Assembly (NCBI GenBank): GCA_019057865.1
Contig: JAHLWP010000011.1
Coordinates: 1-64,000, forward strand
Direction: 5' to 3'
Length of the DNA stretch: 64,000 nucleotides
DNA from: Promethearchaeota archaeon
GTDB taxonomy: Archaea; Asgardarchaeota; Lokiarchaeia; Sigyniarchaeales; SOKP01
Of the stretch, positions 9,621 to 13,732 are shown in pieces. Both the position numbers and the translations under genes were made by a program. Each line of letters opens with the position of its first letter. Within the stretch, counting starts at the first letter, position 1. The notes under the pieces were generated by a model, which was given only the letters and a program-made list of their open reading frames with translations, searched no databases and was not told where the DNA came from.

Positions 9621-9941
9621 ATGGCAAATGAAACAACACTCATCATAAAGAATAGAGCTGAAAAAGAAAAAACAATAAAGGATGCGATTTTTGCATTATC
9701 GGGTGGGAAAAAAACCCTTTTGATAAAAGGAGAAGGAGAAGAAATTAGTACAGCCGTAGAAGTTGCAGAAATTCTTAAGCATCGAATGTATCCTAGTGTA
9801 GAAATCGCTAATGTGTCTTTAGGAAGCCGCCCATTTTTTAACAAAGGACAAAGAGGAAACTACAATAGAAAAAATAGAAATAATAAAAAAGATCTTATTT
9901 CTAAAATTGAAATTACGCTTAAAATGAAATCATATATTTAA
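9621..9941 (+). CDS. Alba-family DNA/RNA-binding protein
   Basis: IKGEGEEISTAVEVAEIL and ISKIEITL match the Alba pattern. Confidence 0.8.
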   Translation: MANETTLIIKNRAEKEKTIKDAIFALSGGKKTLLIKGEGEEISTAVEVAEILKHRMYPSVEIANVSLGSRPFFNKGQRGNYNRKNRNNKKDLISKIEITLKMKSYI

Positions 9942-10135: not shown

Positions 10136-10921
10136 TTAACGTTCTTTAGCTTTTATTTTACTTCTTTTATCAATAAACTTATTCCAATCAAATGCCAGAA
10201 TGAAAAACATGATGGTAAGTGTAGCTATAAGCATTAAAGCTTCAGTTACCACGCTTGAAACATCATTAAGTTCGACTTCAGAAGCAGAAATTCCTAAATT
10301 AATCAAAATAGGAAGAAAAACATAAAATAAGGTTGTAAAATTTTTACCAATCCATCCAAAAAGAAGACACTTAAAAAAATTTATTTTTTCCTTTGACATT
10401 CCTAAAGCTATCCATAGCGGATCATCTGGAATTGGAAGAGCTGCTGCTATGAATATATATAGATACATACTTTTTGGATGTTCTAAAACTAATCTTCCAA
10501 ACCCTTGAACATTTTCAAAAGTTTTTGATTCTGATATTGAAGCAATTTTCTGAGCTCCTCTTCCCAATAAAAAACTTGTAAGTTCACCTAAAGCAGCACC
10601 TAGCCCACCAGCGATCCCAAGACCAAAGATTAGTATTAAACCACTATGCCCAAATTCTGTGATGATTGAATTTGAAAAGAAAAAGAGTATAAAGGGAAAT
10701 GGCACAGGAAATCCGATACTAGCACTTCCAAGAAGACAAATAATAAGGGAGATAAATAGTGCCCAAAAATAATTTGTACCTTCTGTTATATATGCTAATT
10801 TTTGTCTTGAATTATTAATAGCATCTTGAAAATCAGGGACAAATAAATATAATAATAAGTAAATTATAACGCAAACATAAAATAGTAGAAATACAATTGA
10901 AAGTCTTCTCGAAACAGCCAT
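10136..10921 (-). CDS. DedA/VTT (SNARE-associated) family membrane protein
   Basis: GFPVPF, GGLGAALGELTSFLLGR, LPIPDD..IALG; several TM segments. Confidence 0.8.
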   Translation of the reverse strand: MAVSRRLSIVFLLFYVCVIIYLLLYLFVPDFQDAINNSRQKLAYITEGTNYFWALFISLIICLLGSASIGFPVPFPFILFFFSNSIITEFGHSGLILIFGLGIAGGLGAALGELTSFLLGRGAQKIASISESKTFENVQGFGRLVLEHPKSMYLYIFIAAALPIPDDPLWIALGMSKEKINFFKCLLFGWIGKNFTTLFYVFLPILINLGISASEVELNDVSSVVTEALMLIATLTIMFFILAFDWNKFIDKRSKIKAKER

Positions 10922-10947
10922 GTTTAAAACTAAGTTTTTTGTTTAAT

Positions 10948-11334
10948 CTATACTCTAAGAATTTTAGTATTTAATCCATTCCTTGCTTTTAATAATAATT
11001 CGAGATTACTCATAACTTTTCCTACTATATTCACCTTATTTGACATTTCAAGAGCTTCTATAGTTATTATTAATTCATCGTTTTTAGGATTATATACAAT
11101 ATCCCCCTCTTTCACTTCTGAAACTGATTTAGGATTTAGTCCTTTATAAATTTCTATACCTGGTAGTGTCCAGTATTTTTTAGAGCCAAAGCTAAATCGT
11201 CCACGAAGAATAATAGGCAGTTTATTAATTATAGCGTCTGCAGAAAAAGGTGCTATATGCCGAATAAGATGACCCTCTAATGCCCCAATACCGAATAATT
11301 CGATTTTTATAGGTATTTGTCCTTGATCTGTCAT
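10948..11334 (-). CDS. Cyclophilin-like fold protein
   Basis: AP.SA.AI..KLP, EVKEGDIVYNP and VNIVGKV pattern. Confidence 0.65.
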   Translation of the reverse strand: MTDQGQIPIKIELFGIGALEGHLIRHIAPFSADAIINKLPIILRGRFSFGSKKYWTLPGIEIYKGLNPKSVSEVKEGDIVYNPKNDELIITIEALEMSNKVNIVGKVMSNLELLLKARNGLNTKILRV

Positions 11335-11440
11335 ATTTTATAAATAAAGTAAATACAAATTTATATATTATAGCAAAATGAAAATCATTTTAAACTTCAA
11401 AAATTGAGCTTTAAAGTATGAATATTCTTTAAATTTTAAT

Positions 11441-11455
11441 AAAAACATTTAAATA
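11441..11455 (+). promoter_or_regulatory. Archaeal BRE/TATA promoter for the putative ncRNA
   Basis: A-rich BRE-like run followed by TTTAAATA (11448-11455), ending about 24 nt before G11479, where the 5' closing helix begins. Confidence 0.55.
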
Positions 11456-11478
11456 GTCAAATTGTTATATATTTAATT

Positions 11479-11955
11479 GGATGGATAATAGGTCTAATAA
11501 TGCATTGGAGTAGTTACATAAAATCAAATCAAATAACGACAAATTTGTAACAATATTTCTAATGTAATCGTTATTTCCGACAATATTTTTTTATTTGATA
11601 TCTCAAGGAGTAAATAAATACTCTGTATCTTTTCTAAAGTTATTTCATGATGTTCCTATAGTGTCTAATACAGTAGAGCTTAATATAATCATCTAGGCGA
11701 GCACTTTAGAGTAGTTTTAATGGATTTACGCTCATATCACTAATGAAAATAGAGACTCACAGACTTTGTTACTCAAATTCTTGTCGAGCGTGTATTTTTT
11801 TTTTTGAAACACGAGACATTAAAACAGAGTCTAACATTAAAAAATGAGTGCTAAAGAATAGGAGCTTTGATTACAGATTTGGTTCATAGGGTATAATATC
11901 GTTAATTCCTTACTTACTACAAATCTGAGTAATATCTGAGTTCCTATTGTCCATC
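11479..11955 (+). ncRNA. Putative large structured non-coding RNA (~480 nt), family unknown
   Basis: No ORF in the track. 5' GATGGATAATAGG pairs with 3' CCTATTGTCCATC. At least 8 nested internal helices, with G-T wobbles on the + strand. Kink-turn near the 3' end; TATA upstream; T12 tract immediately downstream. Confidence 0.65.
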
Positions 11956-12807
11956 TTTTTTTTTTTTAATATTATAATTAGACAAATCCAATTTAGAATC
12001 AATATCAGAAAATTCAAATCTATTATCAATTTCAACGGCAATTATTTTTTCTCCATTACTAATCATATAATTAATAATTTCCCATATTGTGTTTACTGAG
12101 ACTTTTCCTTTTAATTTTAAAAACTCACTCACTATTTTGAAATTAAATAAGAATACTGGTATTGCTTGCCTTATAAACTCTATATCTTGAAGAACTCTCA
12201 AATCTTCTTGTTTAATTGCTCTTAAAAAGGTTTTCGAATTTTTTCTTTCAATTTGGATAATTGATATGAACTTGGGGGATTTTTGAATAATCTTGTTATG
12301 TTTTTCTTTTAAAATATTAACTTTTATTTTTCTGTAAAAAATTATTGGATATTCTTGAATGAGATTAGAATTATTCATTAGTGTAATAATAAGTTCATTT
12401 AGAAGGTTAAACTCAAATATTGTGTCTCCAGGAATTACGAGAAATAGATTACTTTTCTTAAAAATCATGTTATTTTTAGTTATAGATAAGAATGAATATA
12501 AAGGACCTAACTTATAATCAATACCTGAATCAATAATTAATAATTTATCTGTTAGAGATTTTTTTGTTTTTTTAAGTAAAGAAATAAATTCATCAATTTG
12601 ATATCCTAAATGTCCTTTAATTACTACTATTTGGTTTATTCCTAGCTTTATAAAATTATTTATGGTATGATGTAAAATCGTATTATTATTTAATGATTTA
12701 ATTTTTAATAATGGTTTTGGTAAATTTTGAGTGATTTCCTTGAAGCGTGATGCTTCCCCAGCACACAATACAACCACCTTGACCTTTTCAATTAATGTCT
12801 TCATCAT
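11944..12807 (-). CDS. Sugar-phosphate nucleotidyltransferase (NTP transferase) family protein
   Basis: VVLCAGEASRF..ITQNLPKPLL, PGDTIF, DIDS. Start moved to MMKTL, just after the map stop. Confidence 0.8.
   Translation of the reverse strand: MMKTLIEKVKVVVLCAGEASRFKEITQNLPKPLLKIKSLNNNTILHHTINNFIKLGINQIVVIKGHLGYQIDEFISLLKKTKKSLTDKLLIIDSGIDYKLGPLYSFLSITKNNMIFKKSNLFLVIPGDTIFEFNLLNELIITLMNNSNLIQEYPIIFYRKIKVNILKEKHNKIIQKSPKFISIIQIERKNSKTFLRAIKQEDLRVLQDIEFIRQAIPVFLFNFKIVSEFLKLKGKVSVNTIWEIINYMISNGEKIIAVEIDNRFEFSDIDSKLDLSNYNIKKKKDGQ
11956..11967 (+). terminator. Oligo-T terminator of the putative ncRNA
   Basis: T12 run directly after the 3' strand of the closing helix. It also encodes KKKK of the convergent CDS on the - strand. 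Confidence 0.5.
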
Positions 12808-12814
12808 CGAAAAA

Positions 12815-13732
12815 TCATTCTTTAGTGGTAACAATTGTATTCCCTTCCTTATCAATTACTATTGTGTGCTCTTGTTGAGCTACGGGTTCACGAGTTCTTT
12901 CTATTAAAATAGTATATTTATCAAGGATTTGTTTTCTTAGAAAATCGTTAACAATTCTCATTATTCTATTCTTAGGTATTAAATTGTTATTTTCAATCCA
13001 TCTTGGTGAAAATGGAAGTCGCCTAAAGTTTTTTTCAATTTTATTCATATAGTTTTGTAGCTCATAGGGCATATTTTTCTTTACTTTTTTAACAAATCGA
13101 TATATATAGGCATGATCTCCATTTTCAACTAATCCTTCTCCTGAAGTTGCAAATGGTTCACATGCAAATGCATCTCCAGATTTTAATATATTGTTATGCC
13201 TTTTTTCCAAATAATTTGGTATAAATGGGCCTGCATGGAGATTATATTGTTTCAATTCATGACCGCCAAGATTTCTAATTGGTTTTAAGCCATAGCTTTT
13301 AATTTTATCTTCAATTGCACCTCCTAACTCATATAATTTTGTACCCGGCTTAAATAGAGCAATTGCAGCTTCAAGACCTTCTTCTGCCGCATCTATATAA
13401 TTTTGTAGCTTTGGATCTCCATCAATATTTATTGTAAAAGCAGAATCTGCTATATAACCGTTAAAGTGAGACCCCAAATCAATTTTTAATAAACCTCTTT
13501 CTGGAACAATAGTATCATCATCAATTGGCGGACTATAGTGGGCAGTTATCTCATTTAAAGACATATTAATAGGAAAAGACAAATTTGCACCGTTTTTTAT
13601 AATTTCAGCTTCACATTTATTAGCAATTTCTAAAAACAATGCACCAGGATGAATAATTTTCCTTGCTAACTTCTTGGCAGCTATTACTGCTTTTCCAGCC
13701 TTAATATAATCTTGAATATAATCTTCACTCAT
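12815..13732 (-). CDS. map: Type II methionine aminopeptidase
   Basis: AHYSP, KIDLGSHFNGYIADSAFT, NLGGH, EPFAT, QEHT. Confidence 0.95.
   Translation of the reverse strand: MSEDYIQDYIKAGKAVIAAKKLARKIIHPGALFLEIANKCEAEIIKNGANLSFPINMSLNEITAHYSPPIDDDTIVPERGLLKIDLGSHFNGYIADSAFTINIDGDPKLQNYIDAAEEGLEAAIALFKPGTKLYELGGAIEDKIKSYGLKPIRNLGGHELKQYNLHAGPFIPNYLEKRHNNILKSGDAFACEPFATSGEGLVENGDHAYIYRFVKKVKKNMPYELQNYMNKIEKNFRRLPFSPRWIENNNLIPKNRIMRIVNDFLRKQILDKYTILIERTREPVAQQEHTIVIDKEGNTIVTTKE

Follow-up and report, generated by a model that had tools for sequence, protein, structure and literature searches.

A stand-alone non-coding RNA gene carried by one family of Lokiarchaeia

The stretch of DNA analyzed here, referred to below as the window, comprises 64,000 nucleotides (nt) from a Promethearchaeota archaeon of the Lokiarchaeia (assembly GCA_019057865.1, contig JAHLWP010000011.1, positions 1 to 64,000 of the forward strand), and positions 11479–11955 (+) of it are a stand-alone, single-copy non-coding RNA gene. 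The predicted mature RNA is ~477 nt long, its ends being placed by promoter spacing, by the helix that closes the molecule (P1) and by an oligo-T run. It occupies the intergenic stretch 11335–11943 between two protein genes on the other strand, a cyclophilin-like gene upstream (10948–11334, −), which is divergent from the RNA gene, and a nucleotidyltransferase gene downstream (11944–12855, −), which is convergent with it. Because of this divergent and convergent arrangement, the RNA is not a leader of either neighbor.

Signals for transcription stand at both ends of the element and were kept in the 67 copies compared. On the 5′ side (11441–11455, +), an A-rich stretch resembling a transcription factor B recognition element is followed by the TATA box TTTAAATA (11448–11455), which ends 24 nt before G11479 and is the single promoter box for the whole element. 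The box is invariant among same-genus copies and reads TTTAAATA or TTTATATA, at equal spacing, in other genera. On the 3′ side, the oligo-T terminator T12 (11956–11967, +) comes directly after the last paired base of P1, where a T-run was seen in nearly every copy compared. No conserved open reading frame was found in the gap, the longest + strand frames being 33–34 amino acids, and a protein-coding gene or small-protein mRNA was rejected on the alignments of relatives, in which indels of lengths other than multiples of three are frequent and whole domains are deleted. An earlier note on this DNA had proposed an independently transcribed, large structured RNA in a gap free of open reading frames, with its own promoter and terminator; each part of that proposal has held, on the conserved signals, the covarying end helix and the RNA contigs confined to the element.

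The closing helix and the transcript

P1 joins both ends of the RNA through 13 bp, the 5′ strand GAUGGAUAAUAGG (11480–11492, +) pairing with the 3′ strand CCUAUUGUCCAUC (11943–11955, +), and the core of the helix, GGACAAUAG/CUAUUGUCC, is nearly invariant in sequence. For covariation, 67 non-identical copies from 11 genera were tabulated. Positions 1 and 2 of the helix each occur as G–C and A–U, position 4 as C–G, U·G, U–A and G–C, and position 10 as G–C, U–A and A–U. The outer extensions are lineage-specific yet complementary (e.g. GAUGGA/UCCAUC, GGAGGA/UCCUC and GAAAAGG/CCUUUUC), and P1 pairs in 81% of cells when the 17 same-genus copies are taken on their own. In these aligned copies, compensatory changes at four positions, seen across the 11 genera, prove the helix already drawn in the earlier note and indicate that selection acts on P1 at the RNA level. 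The U·G pairs fit the + strand only, as they become A·C mismatches on the other strand. Both in P1 and in the 5′ motif GCAUUGG described below, the sequence itself is conserved, beyond pairing.

An internal copy of the inner 5′ strand of P1 (AAUAG) lies directly before the 3′ hairpin, and competition for the closing helix had been suggested from it. The internal copy could indeed compete. In genus g14, however, the tenth P1 pair is U–A with the true 5′ end and a G·A mismatch with the internal AAUAG copy; P1 is therefore the selected helix, and a switch between the two pairings stays speculative.

Folding energies were compared with those of dinucleotide shuffles, a control that the earlier note had called for. 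In the window, the + strand folds with −100.2 kcal/mol (z = −2.34), better than the − strand (z = −0.48), but in two relatives the strands fold alike (z of −1.05 and −1.21 for the first, −4.77 and −5.0 for the second) and were not separated. Folding energy alone is therefore not decisive.

Six metatranscriptome runs from four studies contained 34–47% of the element's sampled words, and four of the runs were mapped onto positions 10400–13000. Within this 2.6-kb stretch, the RNA contigs cover 11492–11952 only, and neither flanking gene is covered. Run X15 gave a contig over 11500–11891, run X17 one over 11539–11952, run X18 one over 11529–11924, and run X20 two contigs, over 11492–11704 and 11700–11849. 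The contigs at 11500–11891 and 11539–11952 bridge both internal T-runs, and these runs therefore do not end the transcript. The second T-run, near 11795–11806, differs in length by 1–2 nt between strains. Strain variants from A to G at 11526, 11532 and 11720 turn A–U pairs into G·U pairs in + strand helices, and a metatranscriptome variant, T11712C, turns a G·U pair of the E–F helix (see below) into G–C.

Conserved ends, variable interior and distribution

The only elements common to all genera are the promoter, P1, GCAUUGG(UUU) placed 8–20 nt after P1, a hairpin abutting P1, the terminator and a U-run at ~0.3 of the length, often after CCGACAA. The hairpin that abuts P1 is represented in the window by the 3′ domain (11857–11942, +), which follows the internal AAUAGG copy and is predicted to form a long irregular hairpin of helices 3a (GCUUUGAU/AUCUGAGU), 3b (CAGAUUUG/CAAAUCUG) and 3c. 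Among 52 copies aligned to a covariance model of the domain, 94% of cells are paired and the sequence hardly varies; the middle helix, 3b, differs in sequence between genera with pairing kept. By this comparison, the predicted 3′ hairpin domain is conserved.

A kink-turn had also been read into this domain, which in the window has the form stem–UGAUUA … CUGA–stem. The features looked for were a C box (RUGAUGA) and a D box (CUGA) with tandem sheared G·A pairs by a 3-nt bulge, all conserved among copies. The D-like CUGA occurs only in the window's lineage, its place being taken by CGGA in 50 of 52 relatives and by CGAAGC in the remaining two, where a U·G pair becomes U–A. Such a pattern indicates an ordinary helix, GCUUUGAU/AUCGGAGC, with no sheared G·A pairs. 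The kink-turn was abandoned, and a box C/D small RNA (sRNA) or kink-turn RNA was rejected as an identity for the element, given that CUGA is not conserved and 94% of cells pair as a regular helix.

The 5′ motif GCAUUGG (11502–11508, +; family consensus GCAUUGGUUU) stands 8–20 nt after P1 in nearly every copy. No consistent helix was found between this motif and the interior of the RNA, its best partners differing between genera; the E block is among them in g1, as are sites of the 3′ part in g12, g13 and one g15 copy. Following the motif, hairpin H1a (11513–11551, +) would pair GUUACA (11513–11518) with UGUAAC (11546–11551). Of the cells in 17 same-genus copies, 71% pair, with both-side changes at three pairs, so that this pairing, listed earlier as a possible pseudoknot, gains support; most other same-genus copies add an inner ACGGU/ACCG hairpin within it. 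The sequence CCGACAA and the first internal U-run, U7 (11586–11592), together occupy 11577–11592 (+) and are found again in most genera, ~0.3 of the way along the RNA.

Further into the molecule, the E–F helix (11652–11712, +) was predicted on 51 copies and pairs GUUCC-UAU-AGUGU (11652–11664) with GCACU-UU-AGAGU (11701–11712). Standard pairs make up 63–93% of cells in the 51 copies, and the helix is degenerate in the window's lineage. In a divergent same-genus clade (L012, L020), both E–F strands are replaced with 10 of 11 pairs kept, as read from the alignment. Helix f (11715–11842, +), formed by UUUUAAUG (11715–11722) and CAUUAAAA (11835–11842), would close the central domain; 63% of its cells pair, and both-side changes occur in all eight pairs among the 17 same-genus copies. 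Inside it, the central hairpin (11782–11818, +) is built from UGUC/GACA and CGUGU/ACACG around a U-rich loop, which is the second T-run, of ~11 Ts. UGUY/GACA pairs in 85% of cells in the same 17 copies, and the flanks of the hairpin, UCUUGUYGA and GAUACNCGAGACAU, are conserved in four genera plus g19.

Four predicted helices are thus supported in the 17 same-genus copies, namely the closing helix and, with moderate support, GUUACA/UGUAAC, UGUC/GACA and helix f. Every helix listed in the earlier note is present in the window at the positions given there. Most of those in its domains 1 and 2, where 32–56% of cells pair, are not kept in relatives and look lineage-specific, and the proposed pseudoknot TACGCTC/GAGCGTG is not kept either. 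An all-against-all covariation scan was noisy in the AT-rich alignment. Shorter forms of the RNA were also seen: a natural deletion form from the same genus (L011:1210–1597, genome G019) is 372 nt long, runs from P1 straight to the E block and is without GCAUUGG and all of domain 1, in a genome that is 79% complete and where an assembly artifact is possible, and the copy L078 (genus g23) is 358 nt long with its ends kept. Judged from these copies, the interior is variable and appears in parts dispensable.

All sampled genera of the window's family carry the RNA, in nearly every genome and as a single copy each; copies in relatives measure 358–632 nt, and most of them lie between the same two genes. 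In most same-genus genomes, BLASTN detected both ends of the element a single time, 500–555 nt apart, and it found no second copy in the window's own genome. The covariance model of the 3′ domain matched in 90 of 131 genomes of the family, at one place each, the matches falling in four genera (47/52, 37/42, 5/8 and 1/1 genomes), and in none of 19 genomes from three other families of the order.

Almost every genus of the family has the upstream cyclophilin-like gene, and the DNA upstream of it was read for the RNA directly. This revealed the RNA with other 3′ domains in g12, g13, g15, g18, g19, g20 and g22, and in a g16 genome that the covariance model had missed; in genus g21, the promoter and the 5′ part were the only portions seen. 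A search with a pattern made of P1 plus CAUUGG located the RNA of g17 (L144–L147) at a different locus, with its own TATA box and away from the cyclophilin-like gene, 9 kb off on the same contig in genome G094. The syntenic site in g17 seems to be occupied by another gene. Across the family, 3′ ends of three kinds and one relocated copy were thus recorded. The same pattern gave ten matches in nine genomes of six other families, all without a TATA box and a 3′ partner, and these were read as chance. Searches of 27 genomes from six other families of the class did not find the RNA, and the suggestion of conservation across Lokiarchaeia gives way to a narrower distribution, in which the RNA appears to mark one family.

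Comparison with known RNA families

At gathering thresholds, no Rfam family matched anywhere in the window. When the RNA region was searched in E-value mode (E up to 10), only SNORD127 (E = 0.35) and MIR529 (E = 4) were returned, and none of 11 divergent relatives gave a match at E up to 1. A literature search found no description of the RNA. These results agree with the earlier statement that the element belongs to no class that can be named.

The housekeeping RNAs were considered individually. Like archaeal RNase P RNA and signal recognition particle (SRP) RNA, the Asgard RNA is abundant and of housekeeping size, has paired 5′ and 3′ ends and occurs once per genome; unlike them, it matches neither model (the first includes the conserved P4 regions, the second helix 8 and the Alu domain), and both RNAs are encoded elsewhere in the genome. 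Archaeal RNase P RNA (RF00373) was rejected because it has no match in the region and the genome's own copy lies on contig C40 (140.7 bits), and archaeal SRP RNA (RF01857) likewise, the genome's own copy lying on contig C52 (85.7 bits). Transfer RNA (tRNA) and transfer-messenger RNA were rejected because ARAGORN detects none in the window. The exclusion of RNase P, SRP and tRNA made from motifs in the earlier note was therefore correct.

Two observations on annotation were made along the way. The SRP RNA (C52:25269–25589) matches its model over the full length and yet scores 85.7 bits against a curated cut-off of 96.5 bits, and AT-rich Lokiarchaeial RNAs may escape standard annotation. In a genome rated 99.7% complete, ARAGORN found only 13 tRNA genes, and the majority of tRNA genes there are probably intron-bearing or otherwise atypical.

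In general character, the RNA is closest to the large orphan non-coding RNAs of bacteria (OLE, ROOL, GOLLD and raiA), which likewise are several hundred nt long with a multi-domain fold and a transcription unit of their own, are lineage-restricted yet consistent, have few highly conserved elements and were discovered without a known function. It differs from them in having no sequence or structure match, and no relevant Rfam match was obtained with the OLE, ROOL, GOLLD, raiA or ribozyme models. The Asgard RNA comes from archaea and is flanked by a TATA promoter and an oligo-T terminator; it varies far more in its interior; and it is single copy, at a fixed chromosomal place, with no link to phages or mobile elements.

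The small nuclear RNAs (snRNAs) bound by Sm/LSm proteins (U1, U2, U4, U5 and U6) and the archaeal RNAs bound by Sm-like proteins share with the Asgard RNA conserved U-runs of about 7 or more, predicted to be single-stranded and placed within or beside hairpins, a 3′ oligo-U tail and, as predicted, a short invariant single-stranded motif near the 5′ end. The strings AUUGGAA and GAUACA, neighbors in same-genus copies, we take to recall AUUGGAAC–GAUACAGAGA of U6, a short string picked by eye. Assignment to this class was made to depend on an ACAGAGA box, an AGC triad and an internal stem-loop, or else on an Sm site (RAU4–6GR) between stem-loops, plus a model match. The box, triad and stem-loop of U6 are not present as such in the Asgard RNA, U6 and other snRNA models gave no match at E up to 10 in the region or at E up to 1 in the 11 relatives, and assignment to the U6- or Sm-class snRNAs was not supported; the U-runs do resemble an Sm site, a likeness that is suggestive at most. 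Box C/D sRNAs and other kink-turn RNAs bound by L7Ae resemble only domain 3 of the window copy, through UGAUUA … CUGA between stems; the Asgard RNA is without guide elements and C′/D′ boxes, and its CUGA is not conserved.

Possible function and significance

Sequence beyond pairing is conserved at the ends of the RNA while the interior varies, and for this reason we favor, at roughly even chances of being right, a reading in which the RNA is the core of an abundant, trans-acting ribonucleoprotein, with the invariant end helix and the 5′ motif GCAUUGG(UUU) as the elements by which it is read. Under this proposal, the RNA would act in trans, proteins or a partner RNA would recognize it at the end helix and the 5′ motif, the runs of U7 to U12 would be candidate sites for Sm-like proteins, and the variable interior would serve as a scaffold. 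More speculatively, the internal AAUAG copy might invade P1 and free the 5′ end, giving a conformational switch.

Several results weigh against this proposal. From the metatranscriptome contigs, neither the strand nor the exact ends nor the abundance of the transcript can be read, and DNA can be carried over into RNA libraries. The interior helices appear weakly supported overall, windowed duplex tests (helix f included) giving values marginally better than those of shuffled partners. When the 5′ motif and five other conserved motifs were compared with 16S and partial 23S ribosomal RNA (rRNA), flanks included, no complementarity above that of shuffled motifs was seen, and the idea of a guide to rRNA was rejected. 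No exact complement of the 5′ motif or of the P1 strands occurs in RNase P RNA, SRP RNA or the 13 tRNAs found by ARAGORN, and the complement of the 5′ motif has only a few matches across the genome, which form no pattern; an antisense target was rejected on these grounds. CCGACAA plus U-run is neither common to nor enriched at other loci of the genome, and a common Sm-type site is therefore unproven. Thus far, no partner protein or target RNA has been found.

Of the other explanations, a regulatory decoy or sponge comparable with 6S, CsrB or Y RNA, which would titrate a protein by means of repeated motifs instead of guiding or scaffolding an enzyme, fares best, and we consider it unlikely. It could draw on the presence of CAAUAG, CAUUGG, GGAGC and GAUAC, each twice, in genera with the 3′-domain type of RNA, and on an abundance sufficient for this RNA, and not its neighboring genes, to be assembled from metatranscriptomes. 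What is universal across genera, however, is a single GCAUUGG and a single end helix; the duplicated motifs are missing in g12, g13, g15 and g22, and no decoy family in Rfam matches. A ribozyme or self-assembling large RNA comparable with OLE, ROOL, GOLLD or raiA is distinctly improbable: the size, the multi-domain fold, the few strongly conserved elements and the want of a known partner are all typical of that group, but an interior that is replaced wholesale between genera, with whole domains deletable, would be unusual for a catalytic core, and neither an Rfam ribozyme nor a large orphan family gave a match.

The neighboring genes bear on a third explanation, in which the RNA is a cis-acting or antisense regulator of the cyclophilin-like gene or of the nucleotidyltransferase gene. 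Most genera keep the three genes in this order; the stop codon (11944–11946) of the convergent gene falls within the 3′ strand of P1, so that the 3′ end of the RNA overlaps it; and full-length relatives of the transferase were found only in the family that carries the RNA. The overlap, however, amounts to ~12 nt within the terminator region, and the transferase resembles metabolic enzymes, namely sugar- or choline-phosphate nucleotidyltransferases (LicC-like). Genus g12 has the RNA with no transferase relative found there, a result that, together with the likeness to metabolic enzymes, also led to rejection of the transferase as a partner of the RNA. The cyclophilin-like gene occurs in families where the RNA was not found, and the g17 RNA has a different locus, apart from that gene. 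Because of this relocated copy, the linkage is best read, from the gene maps compared, as conserved gene order, and regulation in cis seems very doubtful. In five genomes (G044, G049, G078, G079 and G081), the transferase match contains in-frame TAG/TAA stops, which could reflect pseudogenes, errors or tRNA-type mini-introns. A gene for an Alba-family nucleic-acid-binding protein lies in the window at 9621–9941 (+), 1.5 kb upstream of the RNA gene.

It is extremely unlikely that the element consists of several short RNAs, as a cluster or as their precursor, with an internal T-run ending each, for although the runs of 7 and ~11 Ts resemble archaeal terminators and domain 3 by itself gives a weak C/D box RNA score (SNORD127, E = 0.35), the 5′ and 3′ ends covary across >450 nt, single contigs span both T-runs, there is one promoter box only, and the C/D-like boxes are not conserved. 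Equally little weight is given to the boldest form of the ribonucleoprotein proposal, an Asgard-specific particle bound by Sm/LSm proteins, in which the 5′ motif would pair with transcripts and the RNA would be a functional analogue or distant relative of the eukaryotic snRNAs.

To our knowledge, few large archaeal non-coding RNAs have been recognized beyond rRNA, RNase P RNA and SRP RNA. The Asgard RNA is about as long as RNase P RNA, is present in nearly every sampled genome of a large family and belongs to no described class, and its value at present is that of a well-defined new RNA family rather than of a mechanism. Eukaryotes, which depend on many RNA–protein machines in their cells, have their closest known relatives in the Asgard archaea. 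An undescribed RNA of such archaea that is abundant enough for assembly from sediment metatranscriptomes suggests that an unknown cellular machine may exist, and the end helix, GCAUUGG and the U-runs may offer a handle by which that machine could be found.

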